From: Callorhinchus milii
Taxonomy: Eukaryota
Reading direction: 5' to 3'
Assembly (NCBI RefSeq): GCF_018977255.1
Contig: NW_024704742.1
Location: 138,696,001-138,760,000, forward strand
DNA length: 64,000 bases
Numbering within the stretch: position 1 is the stretch's first letter; every line of letters begins with the position of its first letter. A program made the translations under genes and the position numbers. Under the pieces are notes generated by a model. It was not told the origin of the DNA. It did not search any database and saw nothing but the letters and a program-made list of their open reading frames with translations. Positions 47,352 to 61,185 of this stretch are shown here, piece after piece.

Positions 47352-47671
47352 CACAAAATTATTTTTGTTCAACTAAAAGAGGTGGTTGTGGCACTGCACT
47401 GTTCAGCTCCTTGGAGGCCACGTGTATATTTGTTGAATAAGTTAAAATGTAAGATGCACCACATAAAGATATTTAGATCACAGTTGCTGTTTGAAGGAAG
47501 TAAAATTCAGTGGAGTGGGTGACACTGAGTGTGGAGTTATTCAACATGATTGTCCAGCGCCTTGGGACGTCCTCCCGATGTGAAAGGCACTTTACAAGTG
47601 TAATTTAGTTGTTGTAGTGTTGGTTAAACAGACATCAAACAGGACTCCCACTGAATATTACAAATTGAATG

Positions 47672-47680
47672 TTTATTAAA
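47672..47680. terminator. Overlapping poly(A) signals: AATAAA on - (SELENOP) and ATTAAA on + (candidate for CCDC152)
   Basis: TTTATTAAA lies ~80 nt past SECIS2 on - and ~320 nt past the CCDC152 stop on +. Confidence 0.6.
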
Positions 47681-47754
47681 ACCTTCCTACAGAAGTGTTC
47701 TAGTATGTTACAAACGTTTAGAAAATCTGTCCCAACTTCTATTTTGGCAGCATT

Positions 47755-47820
47755 TATCATACAGAGATTCAGATTAACTAGGGTCAATGGATTTCCTAGT
47801 CACCATCATGGAGTATGATG
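47755..47820 (-). promoter_or_regulatory. SELENOP: SECIS element 2 (type 1-like) of the SELENOP 3' UTR
   Basis: Minus strand ATCATAC..ATGA-TGGTGACTAGG-AAA-TCCATTGAC-CCTAGTTAATC-TGA..GTATGAT: AUGA/GA core, ~11-nt upper helix, apical AAA, lower helix. Confidence 0.9.
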
Positions 47821-48477
47821 CCTGATTCCAAACAAACTGTAATAACCTTTCATCTTCATTCTGACATACCAGAAGCAAAACAAGAAGCAAATTAATAAGA
47901 ATAATCACTGCCTACTGGTTTCTGATTCATAAACTTTAAAAAAAAGCAGTGTTTTTTGATTGCTTAGTAATTTTAAGTAGAATGAAAATGCAGTTATTGG
48001 AAACACATTTTAGTATTAAACATGGTGATTTCACTGCCTTCACCTTCATTTCTATGGGAAAGGCTTTTGTCTTCTTGTTATTTTACTTCTACACCTCATC
48101 ACAGGTTAAACTGGATGTATTTCCCTGATTAAGTAAAACATATTTTCTCATTTAAAACATAGATATTTTTCTTGTGATGCCAATGGAGAGAAAAGTCACA
48201 GGAAGACAAAGTAAAGAAAGATTCCCTTTTTACAGCGGGGAAACCAAATTGATAGAGGCCAAAACATGTTAATGTAGGTGAAGCATAGGTCATGTAAAGG
48301 AAAACTTCAATTAACTGTTATTTTGTTGCTTTAAGATTGCAGCCAATGTTTAAGAATATAAGTTTTCTTTCAGAAAAAGTGTTTTGTAATGTTTGCTTTT
48401 GAAAGCTTATAAAACTCCCTGTTCGAAATATTTCCAGTTGTTCTCCATTTAGTCGATTAGCTTTCCCACTTCACTTT

Positions 48478-48575
48478 TTTTTCCATTTGTGTTTGCCTTA
48501 CATCAGACAGCAGCTCCTACTGGGTAGTTTGTGCTGAGGTCCTCACAAATGCAACCAGAATAGTTGGAAGAAAAG
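48478..48575 (-). promoter_or_regulatory. SELENOP: SECIS element 1 (type 2, GUGA core) of the SELENOP 3' UTR
   Basis: Minus strand TTTTCTTCCA..TTGCATTT-GTGA-GGACCTCAGCAC-AAA-CTAC-CCA-GTAG-GAGCTGCTGTC-TGA-TGTAAGGCAA..TGGAAAA: core, helix 2, AAA bulge, apical mini-stem; flanks resemble mammalian SELENOP SECIS1. Confidence 0.88.
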
Positions 48576-49060
48576 CAACAGTGGCAATAATTAATCCCGA
48601 ATTAACACTGAATGTCCATAATACTGTTAGGTAACATATTCTCCCTCGTGTTGTTAGATCAGGAATTGTAAAGCACTTTAAACCTGGGGAAGGGTTGCAA
48701 TTTGAAATGGGAAGTTCAATTCTGTATTTTGATGTAAAAGCCATTCATTGTTGTGGGTTAATTCTCAGATTTGCCATATTTATTAATTGCTGTTGGGACA
48801 TCTAAGGTCAAACTATAATCAAAGCATTTAATACGATAGCAGTCAGACAGACTGTACTTAAAAATACCGTAGATTTCTGTTTGTGTCTTATTCAAAGTAA
48901 TTACATTGTGAAATGTGAAGATTTTATGATTTTATATTTGGCTTCAAACTGTCATAAAAGAAAGCTGTTTCACATTGAAAATAAACGTTCCAAACCAAGT
49001 GCTTCCTATTCCTCCATTGGTCACAATCAAGTGTTAAAATGTCGGGCTTGTCTGTGTAAT

Positions 49061-49651
49061 TTAGCTCTGACTATTTTCTGGTCAACTGGCAGCAGAGAGC
49101 GAGCGTCACTGTCAAACCTCAGGAACGTTGCCTTCAGACTTTGGCTGCTGTCACCATCAGGATGATGGGAGGTGGGTTTTGCGGCACTGTCAGGTGACCA
49201 CATTGTGTGAGAGGTCGCTCCCAAACAGCTGACGTCAGTGTCAGGCTCAGCTGACTGGAGCTACCTCTGACCTCACTTCTGGTATACATTTGAATTTCAT
49301 TACTCTTCAAGGGCGTATCTGTAGACTATGCTGGTTCCGCTGTACTCTGGGGCTGTTGGCTGTTGGTCCATCACTTGTTCCTGCCATACTTTCCTCTCGA
49401 TGACCTGAGTTGTTGTGATGGTTCTTGTGATGACGTTGATGATGGCGGTGCTGCCGCCTTCGGTGGGGATCTTGCTCTTCGCCTGGCCCAGTCATGTTTA
49501 ACAGAAGTTGTGTATGTGTGTTGAGGCCACTATCAGGTTGAGCATCAGCCTTATTCACTGATTTAACTACTCCACGACGATGATTCTGTACTGTTTTGTC
49601 AGCAGTGTTTTCTTCTGTTGCACTTGTTGAGTTACATGCTTCAACATATTG
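49061..49651 (-). CDS. SELENOP: Selenoprotein P last coding exon: His/Arg-rich linker and Sec-rich C-terminal domain (10 UGA-Sec)
   Basis: CACAG acceptor; ...QIRP-U-RVMKFKCIPEVRSEVAPVS-U-A-U-H-U-RQLFGSDLSHNVVT-U-QCRKTHLPSS-U-W-U-QQPKSEGNVPEV-U-Q-U-RSLSAAS-U-PENSQS-TAA; in-frame TGA codons start at 49309, 49249, 49243, 49237, 49192, 49159, 49153, 49114, 49108, 49084. Confidence 0.95.
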
Positions 49652-50592
49652 CTGTGGGTATAAGCAAATGACATTTCAAACCCTTTCACATGCTTAATAA
49701 GCTTTTCACTGCATAAGCTTTTCAAAGCTTATTCTCTCTGATATTCAAAACCATAAAGGTAATGATTGTGATTTTTTTAAATAATGTTTATTTGCCCTGG
49801 ATTATGCCAATGTAAGATACCACAGTGGAGTCCAATAATGTAATAATAATAATTCTTGCATTTGATATAGCACCTAATCATGTTTTTGAGGCATCTCAAA
49901 ACGCTTCACAGAATATATTGCAAAGTGAATTGACTATATTTTTGTGTAGGGGTTAGTGCTCTCGCCTCGCAAGCGAGAGGACTTGGGTTCAATTCCCAGA
50001 CAGGGCAAAACGGTTCCTTACTCCACACACTTCTGTTTACCCAGCAAGTAAATAGGAACCCGGTTGTTAGTTGATTGTCGAATCGCTTTTCCGGGGGTAA
50101 TAATCCCTTTTAAAAATAAATAAATAATTTGGTCACTAAATCCACAACTGTTTGTGGGACTCTGCTGTGTGCAATTGGCTGCCACATTTCATCCATAGAT
50201 ATACAGTCAATTCACTTTACAGTGTATTCAGTGAAGCGTTTTGAGATATCTCAAAAACACGATAAGGCGCTATATCAAATGCAAGGATTATTATTATTTT
50301 CAAAGCTTAGTCTATCTGATGTACAAAACTATAAAGGTTAAGATTGTGATTTTTTTAAAAACACCCATTGTCCTAGTTTATGCCAATATAAAAGACCATT
50401 CTGAGGCAGACTTGTGCATTGGCCATTCGATTTATATTTGGACAGCCCGGTATTTGACTCAGGCTAAAGTATATAGAAACCATCACCATGCTTAAGAGTC
50501 TGCAATCCAAACCACTGAGTATTCCACACATAAATGTTCCAATTCACATCATTGAATAATATTAAACTTAAAACGTATTGATTGATTCTTAC

Positions 50593-50710
50593 CATTACAG
50601 AGCAGCCACTGCAGATATTTTGACAGTAAGTCATCCTAATTGCAGTCTCCACATATGGTAGGGTTAGTAAGGTGTAGGGCAGACCCAGGTGGTAGGTCAA
50701 ATGGCCACAT
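50593..50710 (-). CDS. SELENOP: Selenoprotein P coding exon 3 (CGHLTYHLGLPYTLLTLPYVETAIRMTYCQNICSGCSVM)
   Basis: Resembles human CGRLVYHLGLPFSFLTFPYVEEAI..YC...C..C; CACAG / GTAAGA splice sites, 118 nt. Confidence 0.97.
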
Positions 50711-51345
50711 CTGTGAAGAAGCCATGAACAACATGTAAAGTATGTTATTTTCACAGTCATAAGTTTTGTCAAACATAAATTTTCAGTACTGAAAGAAATT
50801 ATTCTGGTCAATACAATTGGCTGCTGGGTAAAATGTACAGTAAATTCACTTTAGAGTATATAAGAGCATAAGCATTTGCTAGGTGAAAGAAGACCAAGGT
50901 CCATCTAATTTGCCTTCCATCATCCTAGCAGTTGCTTGACATGCCATTGTCCCAAACTATATACGTATCCCAAGATATTATTTTCTATTCTCTGTGAAGC
51001 GCTTTGAGATGTCGCGCAGATGTGCTAAGGCTATATCAAAATCTCAAGACTCCTCTTTGACTGTGACTTCAGCCTCCCTCCCGTCACCATCAACACGCAC
51101 ACTCCACCCCTCTTGTTTCCATCCTCCAGCTTGGATGCAAACCCTTAACTGTCCAGTGCCTTGCATCGCCCTTCCGACATGAAACATGTTATACAAATAT
51201 AATTCAATGCACTCTGAGACACTACCTGTGTGAAGGGAGCTATATGAATCCAAGATGTTGTTTAATGAAACTTATGTTGAGGAAGAGGCACAATGTCAAG
51301 AGTTCTCATGTATCTCACAACAAATAACTGAGTGGAATTACATAC

Positions 51346-51558
51346 CTGTCATAGATCAGAAAGTCATCTGTAACCCCTTGTAAGAGCTTCCAGATATTAG
51401 GCTGATGAACATTCTGTTGATACACAGGAATATCCCTAGACACTAAATCAGTGAAATTCTGATACAGGTCACGTGAAAGCTTCTCTTGATGGTTTACTAT
51501 TAAGTAAGAGATGTTCACCAGGCCAGCATTTGTCAGATTTTTTCGCAGGCTATCCAAT
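51346..51558 (-). CDS. SELENOP: Selenoprotein P coding exon 2 (LDSLRKNL...NISYLIVNHQ...IPVYQQ...DDFLIYDR)
   Basis: Hallmark NISY.VVNHQ, IPVYQQ and DDFLIYDR motifs; TTTCAG / GTATGT splice sites, 213 nt. Confidence 0.97.
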
Positions 51559-52850
51559 CTGAAATTATAAACTGGGTTAAAGATCAGAGATAAAGATCCA
51601 ACTTTCAATATAATTAAGCATCTAGTTAAAGTAATGGTGGTTAAGATTAAGAACATAAGACAATAAGAATTTGCTGGCAAAAGAAGACTAAGGTCCATTT
51701 AGTTTGCCTTCCACCATCCTGGCAGTCATTTGACATGTCGTGGCCCAAACTATATACTAAATCCCAAGATATTATTTTCCCAGCAGAAATCTATCTCATT
51801 TGTTCTTAAAACAAACAACACTTTCTGCTTCCACTGTCTGTCTCCCTCGGGAACCTGTTCCATACGTTTACTACTCGCTCACTGAAGTAGTTTCGCAGAT
51901 TTGTTCTGAATTTACCCCCTTCAATCACAGACGGTGTCCTCTAGTCCTACTATTCAGTACAAGATAAAACAGCTTATCACGGTCTACATTACGTGGTCTA
52001 GTCCCTTTAGAATCTTAAAGACCATAATCAAATCACCCTTCAACCTTCTCTTCTCCAGTGTGAACACACCCAGTTTATCTAATCGTTCCTCATCATTTTT
52101 TTACAGTTTTTTGGTTAGTATACAAACTTAAAACCAACATGGATCTAAATGATGTACCATGCAACAATTTCAAATGGAATTTCTTAAGGAATTTGAATGA
52201 AGGGACCTTCTGATAACGCGCATGTATCACGTAAATTTGTGAGATACCCACAAGTCTCTGTAACCTGCCAATATTCTAAAGGTTAAATTAATTAGTATTT
52301 GTTTTGAGTTTGGGCCATCTATGTACGTCTCTGTAGTAGATGGGAGAATTTTGAGTTAGCAGTTGTCACTTGAGATTTGGTAGATGAATATATTTGATTT
52401 CTTTTTGGAAGCATATAATGGAAATGTCCCAAGGTTTGTGAATTGGCATGTCATTAAGCTTTCATAGGATATACTATAAAGCGTAGTGACTGTATTTTGA
52501 GGGTAAAAGGCGACAGCCAATTGCACACAGCAGTGTCCCACAAACAGTCTTAATACAATAATATAAATATACAATATAAAATCATATAAAATAATAAAAT
52601 ATACAATACGGTGTTATAAAAACTGACACAACAGGGTTACAATTTGTATTCCAACAATTATTAGATAATAATTTATTAAAAAAACTATAATAAACTTTAT
52701 ATAATAAAATATAATATAAAACCAACAACAAGAGAGACATGGTTACAATCTGCACTCCAATAATTAACTTAATATGATGTAAAACCAATATCAGAGACAA
52801 GATTACAGTTTATAACTGGTAAAAAGGACCTTATAGTTTTCACTTCTTAC

Positions 52851-53053
52851 CTGGGTGCCTGTTTTTGACATAACTGTCAGCTCGCTTGGAAAAGTACTAC
52901 CACTGTCACAGTACCCAGAGCGTTCTTCATTGGGTAATTCTCTCCAATCCTCCATTGTGGTGGCTTGGTACACTGTGTTCCGTTTACCTGACCCTCCACC
53001 CACCCCAGCAGGAGTAGGCAGAGAGTCAGAGCGAGACCCAGGCTGGTTGGCAT
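52851..53053 (-). CDS. SELENOP: Selenoprotein P coding exon 1: signal peptide and redox UxxC (UQLC) motif
   Basis: MPTSLGLALTLCLLLLGWVEGQVNGTQCTKPPQWRIGENYPMKNALGTVTVVVLFQAS-U-QLCQKQAP; TGA at 52879-52877 is codon 59, as in human; exon starts 53071 after TTTTAG; donor CAG|GTAAGA. Confidence 0.96.
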
Positions 53054-55921
53054 TAATGCCCAGGGCTTTGGCTAAAATAAGAAATAATAAACACAGTTTT
53101 CATAGATCTTATTTTGAACAATATTGCTATTACATCAAATGTCTTAAAATCATAGAATCTTACAGCCCAGAAGGAAACCGTTTGGCCCATCGTGCTCTTT
53201 GAAAGAGCTATTCTGCTCTTACCCCATAGCCTTGCACATTGTTCCTTTTTAAGTACATATCCAATTCCCTTTTGAAAGCTAGGTAATTAAAAAGAAAAGG
53301 AGGTGCCGGAGCCTGCTATTTTTTGGAATTGAAATAATAATAATAAAAGAAATTTAAAAATTTGGTCACTCAATCCACGATGGTTTGTGGGACACTGCTG
53401 TGTGCAATTGGCTGCCACGTTTCACCCACAAAATATACAGTCAATTCACTTTGCAGTATATTCTGTGAAGCACTTTGAGACGTCTCGAAGATGTAATTAG
53501 ACGCTATATCAAATGAAAGGATTATTATTATCTAGCACTGTTACTCTCCTTTTTGGGTTTTCTACAAATTGCTTTAGAAAGTAATTTTGGACGCACTCTA
53601 AAATTACAACCCCATTTTGTACCTCATTACTTTCCATGTCCTAATCAATCTTCAGATAGTTAAAGTCCCCAGTTATTATCACCTTGTTCTTACAGAGCAC
53701 ACCTTTCTAAGATGCCCTATAAATCCCATTTAAATATCTGAAGCCACATTTCAGATAATAAGATTACATCATATCCCTTATCCCAATTAAGATTTTAAGT
53801 TCAAAATCACCCATTTTATTCCACTATTTTGGTCAGCCACATGTGGAAACCCATCACCAAACTTAAGATTACCCAACCCAAACTGAGAATTCCATGCATC
53901 CCACCTACACATGAAAATTCCTGACATATTACAAGTTTAAAATTTTTTTTTTTCAATATTTCAAATATATTTTTAAAAAATTGGTCACTCAATCCATAAC
54001 TAGTTGTGGAACACTGCTGTGCGCAATTGGCAGCTGCATTTCGCTCACAAAATAAACAGTTCACTTTAAAGTAGATTCTGTGAAGGAATTTGAGACGTCT
54101 TGAAGAAGTGATAAAGCGCAATACCAAATGCAAGGATTATTTATTGATTTATTCCTCCACAAGGAGAGAGAGTGCACATTCTATTTCATGCACGGGGAAT
54201 TTCTATATTCAAGGATTATTATTACAATAAATGGAATGCTCATTCTCTCCCTGGAGGGACGTATCCTGCTTACCTAATTCTGGAGAGTATTAGGCGCAGA
54301 TTGCCAAGATCCAAGGCTTGGGAACCCCAGAGTGTGTGTTGGGGTAACTGCTGGAATACACCGCAACCCCTTCTTCCTTTTTCTTAAAATTATGGCTTTG
54401 AAATCCCAAATTTGTTGTTACCAACTATTCGTGTGGTTTTCCATTATAAAGATTTTGTGGCGAGACTGCTACTTCAAGCAATCAGTGTATATTAGACCAT
54501 TACAGTCAGAATAAACAAAAGCATCAGATCAAATTTACTATAGTGATAAGAAATTGTCACTAAAGAACATAAGAACATAAGAATTTGCTGGCAAAAGAGA
54601 CCAAGGTCCACCCAGTTCACCTTCCCCCATTGGCTGCTGCATTTTGCCCAGAAATATACAGTCACTTTACAGTATATTCTGTGAAGCGCTTTGAGACGTC
54701 TTGAAGACATAAGGCGCTATATCAAATGCAAGGATTATTATTATTATGGTAGTTGCTTGACATGTCATGTCCCAAACTGTATACTGTATCCTGAGATATT
54801 ATTTTCTAACAGAAATCTATCTCATTTGTTCTTGGGACTTGGGACTTCAGCGCCTTGGCACGTCCTTCTGACGTGAAAGGCGCTTTATAAATGGAATCTT
54901 GTTGTTGTTGTTGTTCTTGAAACAAACAACATTTTCTGCTTCCACCGTCTGTCTCCCGAGGGAACCTGTTCCATACGTTTACTACTCGCTCCCCGAAGTC
55001 GTGTTTCCGCAGATTTGTTCTGAATTTACCCCCTTTTAATCTCAGGCCGTGTTGTCTGGTTCTACTGTTCAGTACGAGATATAAAACAGCTTCTCGTGGT
55101 CTACATTATCTCGTCCCTTTAGAATCTTAAAGACCGTAATCAAATCACTCCTTAATCTTCTCTTCAATGTGAGTACACTGTTTACCTGATCGCTCCTCAT
55201 AGTCAAGTCCCTCCATCCCCTCAATCATTTTGGTTGCAGTGACCAGAACTGCACACAATATTCACAGTTCAGTCGCACCAGTGCTTTATAAAACTATTTG
55301 GGCTCAATGTTGCTCTTTTGCATCTGGTTTGCCTTACAACAATATTAATAATAATCCTTGCATTTGATATAGCACCTTATCACGTAGTTGAGATGTCTCA
55401 AAGCGCTTCACAGAATATACTGTAAAGTGTAATGACTGTGTATTTTGTGGATGATTATATTACTCACTGCTACCGAGCACAGTTGCGATAGCATACACCA
55501 CTTTTTCCAACAAGCTTTATATTACAGCAAGAATTATTTTAGCTAGTTACTCGGAGATTCAATTACATTTGAAAAAATGCAAAATTTATTTTAATTGATA
55601 AACAATTGATAAATAATTTTAAAAGCGGCTCATCGCATTCCAAGGTTAAATTGATGAGCCAAATCAACAAATACAGTAATTGTCAACAACTGAGTAATTA
55701 AAGATATTCTAAGTTTAAAAAATATATATTTTTCATATTTCATACTGCATAATTACAGCTACAAATACTGAATAATAAAAGAAAATTCCATATAAGCAAG
55801 GGAAACAATTTAGTTTACTATAATTTCAACAATATTTGCTATCATTCTTTGAAAATAGTTCTCTTGTTATTGAAGTTTCATGCAAATATTGTTAAAATGA
55901 TTTAATGAATGAAGTCCTTAC

Positions 55922-55972
55922 ATATTCTTCCTCATGTTTTCTGTTCTTATTCCTGCTCCTGTTTTCAGATCT
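55922..55972 (-). other. SELENOP: SELENOP 5'-UTR exon 1 (start approximate)
   Basis: Begins ~25-30 nt downstream of a TATAAATAG box and ends at donor AATAT|GTAAGG; vertebrate SELENOP has a non-coding first exon. Confidence 0.72.
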
Positions 55973-55994
55973 AACTAGCTCCGAGCTGCTCCCG

Positions 55995-56062
55995 CTATTT
56001 ATACCTCTCTTGTTTTTCAATCTCCTTTTTCACTGAAGATTTAGGTTAAAGTTCATGTTTGT
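55995..56062 (-). promoter_or_regulatory. SELENOP: SELENOP promoter: TATA box (55998-56003), HNF4-type DR1 (56043-56055), adjacent forkhead-type site (56056-56062)
   Basis: TATAAATAG on -; AGGTTA-A-AGTTCA immediately followed by TGTTTGT on +. Confidence 0.72.
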
Positions 56063-56649
56063 CAATCACATAGTCAAAAAAAACAGCAAGTAGTGCATGA
56101 CTTTAACTCATTTTCCAGTATCCTTTCCGTGGCAACAGAGACTCTATTTCAAATTCAAAAAATAGTAATAGTCAGCTGTTTACTGGTTTTATTTAGTTTA
56201 GTGGAGTCTTGTAGCTTAGTGGTTAGAGCACTTGCCTCGCAAGCGCGAGGACCTGGGTTTAATTCCCAGGCAGGGTGAAACATTAGGCAAGTTTCGTTAA
56301 TCCACACGCCTCTGTTAACCGAGCAATAAATAGGAACCCAATTGTTAGGCGATTGGCAGATCGCTTTTCTGGGGGTAATAATCCCTTAAGAAAATAACAA
56401 TTTGGTCACTCGATCCATGACTGTTTGTGGGACACTGCTGTTCGCAATTGGCTGCCAGATTTTGCCCCTCGAAATATAAGTTGGGAGGGCAATGGCAGCT
56501 GTGCGGATTCCCTCGATTTTGGACTGAGAGAAGTCCAGCATTTTCTCGCAGTGAGTCAGAGGAAAGAATCTGCGAGGCGTGTCGGGGAGGGCGGAGGAGC
56601 CGGTTAGTGGTGGAGAACAGGAGCCAGGGATTTCCCTTCACCTTTAGGA

Positions 56650-58350
56650 TTAACAACAACAACAACAGGATTCCATTTATAAAGCGCCTTTCACGTTAGG
56701 AGGACGTCCCAAGGCGCTGCACAGTTGGGTCAGGACCCGAGCAGGGGGGAAATGGTCAGGGTGAGGGGAGGGAAGGGAGGGAGCGAGGAGGGGGGAAATG
56801 GTCAGGGTGAGGGGAGGGAAGGGAGGGAGCGAGGAGGGGGGAAATGGTCAGGGTGAGGGGAGGGAAGGGAGGGAGCGAGGAGGGGGAAATGGTCAGGGTG
56901 AGAGGGGGGAAGGGAGGGAGCGAGGAGGGGGGAAATGGTCAGGGTGAGGGGAGGGAAGGGAGGGAGCGAGCAGGGGGGAAATGGTCAGGGTGAGGGGAGG
57001 GAAGGGAGGGAGCGAGGAGGGGGGAAATGGTCAGGGTGAGGGGAGGGAAGGGAGGGAGCGAGGAGGGGGAAATGGTCAGGGTGAGGGGAGGGAAGGGAGG
57101 GAGCGAGGAGGGGGGAAATGGTCAGGGTGAGGGGAGGGAAGGGAGGGAGCGAGGAGGGGGGAAATGGTCAGGGTGAGGGGAGGGATGGGAGGGAGCGAGA
57201 AGGGGGAAGAGAGTCGAGAGGGGAGCTGAAGGCTCGGTCAAAGAGAAAGGTTTTGAGACCGGCCTTGAAGGAGGAGAGGGAGGAAGCGGCGAAGGCACTG
57301 GGGATAGATAACCTGGAATAGAAGGATGATTTGGCTGAGGCGGGAGCGGAGCGGTAGTTTTGTCTGAGGAGGTGGAGCAGGAGGGGGTGAAGTGGAGGTT
57401 GAAGTCGCCCAGGATGATGAGGTGGTCAGAGCAGAGGCAGGGGGAAGCAAAGAGGGTGGAGATGTCAGGTGGGGGAGGATTTTGGGGGGCGGTACACTAG
57501 GAGGATTTTCAGAGAGAGGTGGGAGGGATGGCAGAGGGTAAGGTATTTGAGGGGAACAAGCCGGTGGAGTAGGGGGATAGGGCAAGTGATGCCCTGAATA
57601 TGAGGGACACACCACCACCACAACGATTGGGGCGGGGCATGGTGGCAGGTGTAGCCAGGTGGTGTGGTCTCAGTGAGGGGGAAGGTGTCACCTGGAGTGA
57701 TCCAGGACTCTGTTAGTGCCATAATGTCAATGTTCTCATTGAGGTTGAGTTCATTGATGGCCAGGGTCTTGTTGGAGATGGAGCGGACAGTTGGCAAGGG
57801 GATGTGTGGGATGGGAGGGGATAGTGGAATGGTTGGGAGGGAGGGTAGGGTTGCAGATGAGGGAGGAGAAGTTAGCCCCCAGGGTCTGGGTCTGGGGTGG
57901 CTTGCAGGGGTAGTGGGGAATGGGGCAGTTGGTGTGGCTGCTGCTGGACAGCCAGCATCGTGATGAGCGAAGGATTCCCAGGCTGGAGCAGAGGGAGGCA
58001 GTGGAAGGGGCAAACAGTGATAGGAGGCGGGGAGGGCGTAGAGAGAGCAGGACAGAGCAGGAGAGTTGCAGGGAAAGGGACATTTTGAGGGAGGGCCAGC
58101 TCGGGTTGGGGGCGGCAGCCAAGATGTGCACGCTGGGACGAGAGGTGGCGGGTTTAGAGAGACATTGTCAGCCTGCAGGAGGCTGTGGGGCTGTGAGGTG
58201 GTGCAGAGGTGGGAGGGCGCTCATTGTGGTTAGTAGGGGAAGGACAGGGAAAACAGGCAGACAGACAGACAGACAGAGGGTGGGAGGGAGGGAGACACTG
58301 GTACAGGCGGTCCTGTCCTGTCCTGTCCTGTCCTGTGCTGTGCTGTAGCT
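56650..58350 (-). mobile_element. Internally deleted L2: 5' region and APE start joined directly to the 3' end
   Basis: VRSISNK..DIMALTESWI..VYRPPK, LGDFN-like endonuclease motifs at 57.4-57.8 kb, then LKTFLF end and (TTG)n tail at 56652. Confidence 0.8.
56745..57200. repeat. 45-46 bp polypurine minisatellite, 10 copies, within the L2 3' UTR
   Basis: Unit GGGGGGAAATGGTCAGGGTGAGGGGAGGGAAGGGAGGGAGCGAGGA; AATGG recurs at 56751, 56797, 56843, 56888, 56934, 56980, 57026, 57071, 57117, 57163. Confidence 0.95.
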
Positions 58351-58369
58351 GCTAACGGGATTCAAACCT

Positions 58370-58448
58370 GGCGGGCGGAAGTGACGTCATGCAGAATGGT
58401 GGGAAAATCTGGAAGTCGAAAATGGCGGCTCCCCCTGACCAGGTAATG
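58370..58448 (+). promoter_or_regulatory. Housekeeping-type promoter / first exon of a divergent + strand gene
   Basis: GC box, ETS-CRE composite GCGGAAGTGACGTCA (58375-58389), YY1 AAAATGGCGGC (58419-58429), donor CAG|GTAATG (58442/3), CpG-rich downstream. Confidence 0.65.
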
Positions 58449-58769
58449 GCCAACGCTCGATCCCCGAGACCCCGACCCCAAGACACCCACCTCAGGGCCC
58501 ACGAGACCCCGGCCCAGCCTACAGATACCGGCCCCTGCCTTTGGCTAATGCCAGTCCCCAGGACCCCGACTCTGCTTCGAGCTATTGCCGGCCCCAATCC
58601 CCAAGATACCGTCCCTACCACTAGCTGTTGCCGGATCCTGACACCCGCTCTGGCTACTGCCGGTCCCCATCCCCGGGACCTCGAACCCCCACTGGCTAAA
58701 GCTGGTCCCGATCCCTGGGAGACCAGCCCTATGACTTCCTGCCTCTGCCTGACTTACCTTCCGTGAGTC

Positions 58770-60020
58770 TACCCTTGACTCCAGGACCCACTGCTGTCCT
58801 GACAGAATGTCTGTCAGACGTCAAGTCCCGGATGAGGGCAAACTTTCTACAGGTGAACGTCAACAAGACCGAGGCTCCTGATTGGCTCCCGTCAGCGCCT
58901 CCACACCTCAGGCCCTGACAGCATCACCATCCCTGGGGCTCACTCCCCCTCACTGCGCCAGTCCCGAACCTTGGGGTCTGGTTTGACCCTCAACTATACT
59001 TTCTCCCCCACATCTGCCCCATGACCCGCTCTGCCTCCCCCACCCCCGCAACATGGCCCGACTCCCCCACTGTCTCACACCACAGCCCCTGACACCCTCA
59101 CACACCCCTCCATTACAGTCAGACTCCACTATGCAAACTCCCTCCTTGTCGGCCCCCAACCCCTCCCTCCACAGACTGCAGATCATCCCGAACTAACTCT
59201 GCAGCCCGTGTCCTCTCCCCCACCCCATCACCCCCATCCTCACTCCCACCAGGCTCCCCGATCCCATCACCCCCATCCTCACTCCCACCAGGCTCTGTGA
59301 CCCTAACACCTCCATCCTCACCCCCACCAGGCTCCCCGACCCCATCACCCCCATCCTCACCCCCACCAGGCTCCCCAACCCCATCACCCCCATCCTCACC
59401 CCCACCAGGCTCCCCCACCCCATCACCCCCATCCTCACCCCCACCAGGCTCCCTGACCCCATCACCCCCAACCAGGCTCCCCGATCCCATCACCCCCATC
59501 CTCACACCCCAGGCTCCGTGACCCCCATCACCCCCATCCTCGCCCCACCAGGCTCTGTGACCCTATCACCCCCATCCTTGCCAACTCCACTGGCTTCCCG
59601 TCACACAGACGATACAATTCAAGATCCTGGTCCTCACATTCAAAGCCCTCCATGGTCTTGCACCCCCCGACCTCTGCCACCTCCTAACCCCCTACCATCC
59701 CGCTCGCTCCCTTTACTCAGCGGGCTCTGGCTTGCATCATGTTCCCCGCCTCACTCGCCCCACCATTGGTGGGTGGGCCTTCTGCCACTCTGCCCCTACC
59801 ATCTAGAACTTCATCCCATAGTCACTCCACCTCGCCCCTTACTTACCTCTTTCAAGACCCATTTCAAGACCCTCCTCTTTGACCGTGCTTCCGATCACCC
59901 TCCTTCCCCCATTGCCCACTGCCCCCCACCCTCCCCAATCCCAACCCCCAGCTCGGGTCCGAAATCCAGTGCCTTAGGACATCCTCCCGAAAGGTGCTAT
60001 ACAAATGTAATGTTCTTGTT
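58770..60020 (+). mobile_element. L2 3' fragment containing a 39-bp minisatellite (~59220-59580)
   Basis: L2 ORF2 remnants; unit CCCATCACCCCCATCCTCACCCCCACCAGGCTCCCCGAC derives from the L2 RTRL.DPITPIL coding segment. Confidence 0.85.
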
Positions 60021-60163: not shown

Positions 60164-61185
60164 GGTGACCGACCTCCCCCGGTGACCGACCTCCCCCGGT
60201 GTCTGAACCGCCCCCGGTGACCGACCTCCCCCGGTGACCGACCTCCCCCGGTGTCTGAACCGCCCCCGGTGACCGACCTCCCCCGGTGACCGACCTCCCC
60301 CGGTGTCTGAACCGCCCCCGGTGTCTGAACCGCCCCCGGTGTCTGAACCGCCCCCGGTGACCGACCTCCCCCGGTGACCGACCTCCCCCGGTGTCTGAAC
60401 CGCCCCCGGTGACCGACCTCCCCCGGTGTCTGAACCGCCCCCGGTGTCTGAACCGCTCCCGGTGTCTGAACCGCCCCCGGTGACCGACCTCCCCCGGTGA
60501 CCGACCTCCCCCGGTGACCGACCTCCCCCGGTGACCGACCTCCCCCGGTGACCGACCTGCCCCCGGTGACCGACCTGCCCCCGGTGACCGACCGCCCCCG
60601 GTGACCGACCGCCCCCGGTGACCGACCGCCCCCGGTGACCGGCCGCCCCCGGCGACCGGCCGCCCCCGGCGACCGGCCGCCCCCGGCGACCGGCCGCCCC
60701 CGGCGACCGGCCGCCCCCGGCGACCGGCCGCCCCCGGCGACCGGCCGCCCCGGCGACCGGCCGCCCCCGGCGACCGGCCGCCCCCGGCGACCGGCCGCCC
60801 CCGGCGACGTCCCGCCCCCGGCGACTGTCCCGCCCCCGGCGACTGTCCCGCCCCCGGCGACCGTCCCGCCCCCGGCGACTGACCCGCCCCCGGCGACTGG
60901 CCCGCCCCCGGTGACTGGCCCGCCCCGGTGATTGACACGTCCCCGGTGTCTGAACCGCCACCGGTGACTGACCTGCCCCCGGTGACTGTCCCGCCCCCGG
61001 TGACAGCCCCGCCCCGTCCCCGGCGACTGACCCGCCCCCGCCCTTGGTGACTGACCACCCTGTCCCGGCGACTGACCCGCCCCCGCTCCTGGTGACAGAC
61101 CCCCCTGTCCCCGGCGACTGACCCGCCGCCGCCCCCGCTCCTGGTGACAGACCCCCCCTGTCCCCGGCGACTGACTCGCCCCCAG
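60164..61185. repeat. GC-rich 17/18-bp minisatellite
   Basis: Units GGTGACCGACCTCCCCC, GGTGTCTGAACCGCCCCC, GGCGACCGGCCGCCCCC, GGCGACTGTCCCGCCCCC. Confidence 0.95.

Follow-up and report, generated by a model that had tools for sequence, protein, structure and literature searches.

A spliced upstream open reading frame whose stop codon overlaps the SELENOP start codon in the elephant shark

Coupled termination-reinitiation at an overlapping stop and start codon is described for influenza B virus M1/BM2 and for caliciviruses, in which the overlap follows a long upstream ORF with a TURBS of 45-90 nt (PMC3035654, PMC10275272), and in BM2 ribosomes must translate across a TURBS of 45 nt that contains a UGGGA core (PMC3035654, PMC5972666). 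In the insect retrotransposon SART1, a UAAUG overlap links a long ORF1 to ORF2, and an RNA structure downstream is required (PMC5972666, PMC10275272). The polycistronic X/P mRNA of Borna disease virus (BDV) carries a short uORF that ends in a UGAUG pentamer on the downstream AUG, is regulated via DDX21 and P, and lowers basal expression, its function having been tested in BDV (PMC2766071). Among cellular mRNAs, the human SLAMF1 long isoform has four uORFs, the last of which (uORF4, 29 codons) shares 1 nt with the main start in UGAUG and comes with a TURBS-like UGGGA (PMC5972666). The vertebrate SELENOP1 mRNA is described as containing an Initiation Stem Loop (ISL), an SRE and two SECIS elements (PMC5727441). 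The text of PMC5727441 mentions neither a uORF, Kozak context, reinitiation nor shark, and in the open-licence literature searched we found no prior description of a SELENOP uORF.

Here we describe a real, RNA-supported and apparently unreported stop-start uORF in the SELENOP gene of the elephant shark, Callorhinchus milii. Given that uORFs are common and that SLAMF1 already provides a cellular mRNA with a 1-nt overlap of stop and start, the kind is not new. The locus resembles vertebrate SELENOP1 (PMC5727441) in the arrangement of its exons, the promoter motifs, the start Met, the position of the first Sec (codon 59) and the Sec-rich tail, as well as in an ISL, here predicted, over the signal peptide and in two SECIS candidates; it departs from it in the leader. 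With influenza B virus and the caliciviruses it shares the UAAUG pentamer and the stop/start overlap, but its main AUG lies only 71 nt from the cap. The initial annotation had likened the overlap to that of BM2, a comparison that does not carry over to the mechanism: the main AUG can be reached by scanning, neither TGGGA nor GGGA occurs in the 71-nt leader (a single TGGG lies 9 nt before the AUG), and the uORF offers 30 nt before its stop, versus the ~45 nt or more of upstream translation associated with a TURBS. Without TGGGA and with 30 nt of uORF, C. milii SELENOP therefore falls outside the TURBS class. The likeness to SLAMF1 lies in the cellular mRNA and the 1-nt overlap; SELENOP differs in having one uORF only, of 10 codons, in the pentamer UAAUG, in the lack of UGGGA and in the presence of a hairpin downstream. 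BDV X/P has in common with it the short uORF and the pentamer, although the SELENOP uORF is known from sequence and RNA contigs, and SART1 the UAAUG and the downstream structure, although here the uORF has 10 codons and the hairpin predates it.

The five-exon minus-strand gene at ~55975..47660 of the window, that is, the 64,000-nt stretch of DNA analyzed here, is Callorhinchus milii SELENOP (SELENOP1). Its parts are the following.
55922..55975, minus strand: exon 1, covered by RNA contigs to 55966, with the 5′ end placed near 55970-55975 from the TATA box
53072..55921, minus strand: intron 1, 2850 nt, GT-AG, interrupting uORF codon 5 (contig joint 53071/55922)
52851..53071, minus strand: exon 2, with 18 nt of leader, then the signal peptide and the start of SelP_N (translation, Pfam, contigs)
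52877..52879, minus strand: first Sec UGA, codon 59 (translation)
51346..51558, minus strand: exon 3 (translation, Pfam, contigs)
50593..50710, minus strand: exon 4 (translation, Pfam, contigs)
47660..49651, minus strand: exon 5, with a His-rich linker, 10 further UGA, the stop codon at 49063-49061 and the 3′ UTR (translation, Pfam)
48492..48555, minus strand: SECIS 1 candidate (Rfam RF00031, 27.8 bits, E 0.0074, below the gathering score of 35)
47758..47817, minus strand: SECIS 2 candidate (Rfam RF00031, 26.4 bits, E 0.017, below the gathering score of 35)

Joined, exons 2-5 yield 374 codons, among which UGA occurs in frame 11 times, beginning with codon 59; three of the four exon pieces match Pfam PF04592 (SelP_N) and the fourth matches PF04593 (SelP_C). 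The gene thus has the SELENOP hallmarks of SelP_N and SelP_C domains, a UxxC Sec near the N-terminus and a multi-Sec tail. In an alignment with the orthologues, the Met at 53053 falls on their M-W-x-x-L-G-L start. The translation is the same as the C. milii protein UniRef100_A0A4W3I011 (P0001) except at two places where that entry skips the first UGA and reads into intron 4, a match that identifies the species; a second public C. milii SELENOP protein (P0002) has a wrong N-terminus. The Sec-rich tail (49061-49651, minus strand) is short, with 10 UGA, and the protein ends at residue 374. The 3′ end of exon 5 is approximate, with a poly(A)-type hexamer at 47677. Both SECIS candidates span the full length of the RF00031 model, and none of the matches reaches the gathering score; SECIS 1 has GUGA where AUGA is usual before the core.

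Contigs from 4 of 14 listed runs (X1 and X2 from study P1, X3 and X4 from study P2) were placed on positions 50500-56700 and treated as RNA because they skip introns at GT-AG ends. Introns 2 and 3 are skipped in this way in all four runs, and the exon 4-5 joint appears as a loose end of run X3. Such contigs do not give start sites or isoform levels, and depth was not used for ranking isoforms. Direct joining of exon 1 (55922) to exon 2 (53071) is supported by contigs in three of the four runs, from both studies. The donor and acceptor proposed in the initial annotation are in use, as the joint 53071/55922 is contained in contigs of X3 (shorter side 41 nt) and X4 (side 45 nt), both of which include the uATG with 27-31 nt 5′ of it, and a 9-nt loose end in X1 equals the final 9 nt of exon 1. 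In the X4 contig, exon 2 starts at letter 46, and therefore nothing intervenes between exons 1 and 2; the depth of its exon 1 bin, 7.83, equals 36 x 45/207. The initial annotation had named an extra UTR exon and a start site downstream of 55933 as findings that would speak against the uORF: there is no such exon in X1 or X4, and the transcripts extend at least 27-31 nt 5′ of the uATG. The donor reads TAT/GTAAGG after 55922 and the acceptor TTTTAG/CCAAAG at 53071, behind a strong pyrimidine tract. Two further acceptors, 53065 (which would give an 8-codon uORF with the overlap unchanged) and 53042 (which would skip the main ATG), were rejected, as both have weaker pyrimidine tracts and are absent among the joints listed. 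Neither exon 1 nor exon 2 has a variant listed in these contigs, which drop rare variants.

In the joined exons, the 10-codon spliced uORF MRKNIQSPGH, with its TAA sharing an A with the SELENOP ATG, is confirmed in sequence and in RNA contigs.
55933..55935, minus strand: start codon of the uORF, with A at both -3 and +4, at a distance of ~32-41 nt from the cap
53051..53055, minus strand: TAATG, in which the uORF stop (53055-53053) overlaps the SELENOP start (53053-53051)
52953..52955, minus strand: next downstream AUG, out of frame, in a strong context (A at -3, G at +4), opening 37 codons

The contexts, too, are as initially annotated, with A at -3 of the uATG and a weak main ATG (T at -3, C at +4). 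Apart from the uATG at 55935, the leader contains no ATG ahead of the main one, and the uORF, which is out of frame with the main ORF, stops where it reaches the main AUG. An N-terminal extension starting at the uATG is ruled out by frame, the orthologous Met being the one at 53053. Two further AUGs, the in-frame Met42 (52930, weak context) and the out-of-frame one at 52955, lie 97-123 nt beyond the uORF stop; initiation at Met42 would yield a form without signal peptide that retains the first Sec. Judged by eye, nucleotides 1-21 of exon 2 bear a loose resemblance to the 21 nt that follow (53030-53071; shared CCAA..AGCC..TGGG), which hints at a small local duplication as a possible origin of the unusual start context.

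Upstream of exon 1, three promoter motifs were recognized.
56043..56055, minus strand: putative HNF4-type direct repeat, with a similar motif in the corresponding position 5′ of the TATA box of gar, birds and mammals
56009..56017, minus strand: AAACAA, putatively FoxO-type, at the same pre-TATA position in gar, Xenopus, birds and mammals
55997..56003, minus strand: TATA box TATAAAT, kept in orthologous promoters

Transcription starts 25-30 nt past a TATA box, and the start is therefore expected near 55970-55975, in agreement with the contigs reaching 55966, for a leader of ~63-72 nt. The match of the TATA box and promoter motifs to those of other vertebrates likewise places the start site 5′ of the uATG. 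The direct repeat at 56043..56055 is one that we take to be bound by an HNF4-type factor. For the Sepp1 promoter, HNF-4alpha and FoxO1a sites close together are described (PMC3725484).

One run departs from this picture. In X2, the joint to 55922 is absent among the joints listed and the exon 1 bin has zero depth, while the exon-2 contig (52851-53071) carries 30 extra unplaced upstream letters, which could be a filter artefact, a variant or another first exon; the missing cover of exon 1 in this run was not taken to mean that the exon is absent. Together with a single mammalian alignment record that has a different, uATG-bearing leader and with a CpG-type promoter ~2.4 kb upstream, this would fit an isoform switch, whereby the TATA/exon-1 transcript has the uORF and other tissues use a uORF-less first exon or a later start, so that the uORF would set translation in a tissue-specific manner. 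We consider such a switch very improbable, given that filtered records leave holes in the run data, that a 30-letter overhang is a normal contig overlap, and that X1, which belongs to study P1 as X2 does, contains the end of exon 1. In addition, the best upstream donor (58758) lies within a frame resembling a reverse transcriptase, presumably of a LINE.

Chance expectation was modeled with 20,000 mononucleotide and dinucleotide shuffles of the A-rich 71-nt leader, in place of a genome-wide rate. A uATG arose in 73% (mononucleotide) to 93% (dinucleotide) of the shuffles and is therefore expected from composition, whereas 1.8-2.1% of them produced the exact pentamer overlap and 7-8% had a stop somewhere within -6..+4. 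For a single gene, the exact overlap is thus mildly improbable; in a genome-wide scan it is weak evidence. For comparison, the start regions of 61 of the 131 records in the supplement alignment of PMC5727441 were read by eye, the TATA box being visible in 42 of the 61. Within the visible part, none of 60 canonical bony-vertebrate leaders contains a uATG (in two rodent records an ATG touches the TATA box, 5′ of any start site, and the leader of one mammalian record is of another kind and does contain uATGs), and all 61 starts have a purine at -3, in contrast to the uORF and the T at -3 in C. milii. The lack of uATGs from these leaders, although composition gives 73-93%, suggests that uATGs matter in SELENOP. 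Four bony-vertebrate records have TGATG at the start and no uATG in the part of the leader shown; the string taatgtgg does not occur in the alignment file, and neither Callorhinchus nor Rhincodon is among the species aligned. The uORF and the weak main context are both absent from the bony vertebrates viewed and are not a general property of SELENOP, the elephant shark gene representing a natural variant of a leader that is otherwise uATG-free and has a strong start context. Protein searches for other chondrichthyan SELENOP N-termini returned C. milii alone (1 of 54 candidates; 1 of 2), the best 120 of 129 protein matches listed included no other named chondrichthyan, and a metagenome scan gave 597 pattern matches, of which 0 were confirmed.

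These comparisons cut both ways with respect to a near-neutral accident, namely, a drift-born uATG in an A-rich exon that is mostly skipped or offset by mRNA abundance, the overlap and the weak context being coincidental. The frequencies in the shuffles are compatible with an accident, as are the TGATG starts in four orthologues devoid of a uATG in the part shown, and the arrangement is seen in C. milii alone among the species compared. However, both the gain of the uATG and the loss of the purine at -3 run against a leader that appears constrained in the bony vertebrates viewed, and the uAUG has an A at -3. An accident seems unlikely, though it deserves serious consideration.

Two structural features lie at or near the start codon.
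53049..53060, strand not assigned: 12-bp palindrome, a weak 4-bp hairpin as RNA, probably incidental (sequence, folding)
52987..53030, minus strand: ISL, a predicted 20-bp hairpin with 6 G-U pairs, ~-35 kcal/mol (folding)

The perfect 12-bp palindrome noted in the initial annotation is present, but it covers the stop-start overlap and not, as had been stated, the splice junction. Perfect palindromes of this length number 24 in the window versus 9-18 in 5 shuffled windows, and the RNA hairpin (-3.3 kcal/mol) forms in the whole-leader fold but not in the exon-2 fold; being common in the window, weak and fold-dependent, the palindrome was rejected as a functional element. The ISL, which went unmentioned in that annotation, begins 24 nt into the CDS and is predicted to span +24 to +67, over the signal peptide, with z of -3.6 and -4.2 and none of 200 shuffles being as stable. 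The position of this predicted hairpin matches that of the ISL described in PMC5727441, where disruption of the mouse Selenop ISL is reported to halve in vitro translation and leave first-UGA recoding unaltered. The rescue of a weak AUG by a hairpin downstream of it works best over a distance of 12-18 nt; effects are still cited for +27 and +30, but not for +35 (PMC2001202). An ISL at +24 that aids the weak main AUG is plausible, if not optimal.

We favor, with a probability of roughly 0.55, a lineage-restricted repressive overlapping uORF, with SELENOP produced by leaky scanning; translation of the uORF, the leaky-scanning route, the size of the effect and any benefit are what we infer. Scanning 40S subunits would reach the uAUG first, in an adequate context and 32-41 nt from the cap, and some would initiate there, translate 10 codons and terminate atop the main AUG. 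With zero spacer, there would be no time to re-acquire the ternary complex, so that most such ribosomes would be recycled or run past. SELENOP would then come mainly from ribosomes that leak past the uAUG and choose the weak main AUG, a selection that the conserved ISL just downstream may assist, whereas those that pass the main AUG would meet the strong out-of-frame AUG at 52955 as a sink. The net outcome would be less initiation per mRNA than in bony vertebrates, and ribosome traffic before the first UGA (codon 59) may incidentally thin.

Among described systems, two reviews (one of them PMC5972666) present overlapping uORFs as repressors bypassed by leaky scanning and hold that a spacer is needed if reinitiation is to follow a short uORF; the 1-nt overlap in SLAMF1 is said to 'likely preclude' typical reinitiation (PMC5972666). 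In BDV X/P, removal of the uAUG of the UGAUG-overlap uORF markedly raised X, but most X is nonetheless attributed to reinitiation (PMC2766071), which counts against the leaky-scanning reading. In favor of repression, we count the uATG in RNA contigs, its being the sole uATG of the leader, the A at -3 and the stable predicted ISL; against it, we count the lack of a G at +4 of the uAUG, an ISL at +24, outside the 12-18 nt optimum, and X2, whose missing joint means that another leader may exist.

The ~2% chance of the overlap and the unusual weak context leave room for selected coupling. The uORF could supply the weak main AUG with ribosomes instead of acting solely as a repressor, by termination-reinitiation that is independent of a TURBS: after 10 codons, the 40S subunit would keep eIF3, the ISL would block its forward movement, and the subunit would move back by one base to re-initiate at the overlapping AUG. 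The exact UAAUG overlap with a 20-bp hairpin 24 nt downstream would suit such a scheme, as would the pairing of a strong uAUG and a weak main AUG, which none of the 61 starts viewed displays. SART1 offers a precedent for UAAUG with downstream structure and TURBS-type reinitiation tolerates a poor context (both PMC5972666), and BDV X is reportedly made mostly by reinitiation after a short UGAUG uORF (PMC2766071). Still, we regard this coupling as quite unlikely. The UGGGA motif is absent from the leader, the ISL is found in uORF-less orthologues and so evolved for something else (PMC5727441), scenario-1 reinitiation needs a spacer according to the reviews, and the overlap has no counterpart in the bony-vertebrate leaders viewed. 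A more specific proposal, which we advance as speculation and hold to be decidedly improbable, is that SELENOP of holocephalans, perhaps of all cartilaginous fish, uses hairpin-assisted, TURBS-less reinitiation, with the 10-codon uORF capturing ribosomes and the ISL holding the post-termination 40S on the weak AUG, so that the spacing of ribosomes is metered before the slow first Sec codon; if true, this would be a cellular coupling of the SART1 or BDV kind that tunes selenocysteine throughput.

Returning to the repressive uORF, the initial annotation had suggested that it limits ribosome loading ahead of the first UGA. In human cells, collisions at Sec codons limit selenoprotein yield; the tests described in the portion consulted varied elongation speed and dealt with selenoproteins other than SELENOP, and uORFs were not among their subjects (PMC12632765). 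Combined with the repression by overlapping uORFs set out in the reviews, this makes a loading limit in C. milii SELENOP a reasonable suggestion by analogy. Conversely, the finding that the mouse ISL raises initiation while first-UGA recoding is unaffected argues against a need to limit loading. The locus therefore poses the question whether lower ribosome loading gives better full-length multi-Sec output, as the collision model would have it (PMC12632765), and its 71-nt leader offers a compact system in which to ask whether a hairpin placed downstream can stand in for a TURBS.

In the surroundings of SELENOP, the GC-rich, promoter-like stretch at 58360-58450 on the plus strand, which contains an ATG (58422) and a donor (after 58442), is the probable first exon of a gene arranged head-to-head with SELENOP, ~2.4 kb from the SELENOP TATA box; a Pfam search on its candidate exon frames gave no match. 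Pfam searches on 14 other ORFs gave reverse-transcriptase matches in 3 and one weak ICEA match below the cut-off. GC-rich minisatellites lie upstream of SELENOP at 56738-57206 (46-bp x10), 59215-59578 (39-bp x6.6) and 60164-61183 (17-bp x48). The window also contains ten tRNA-like Rfam matches, including one at 56205-56278, at least some of which head a repeated intron-filling element; by our labeling, these are probably tRNA-derived SINEs.
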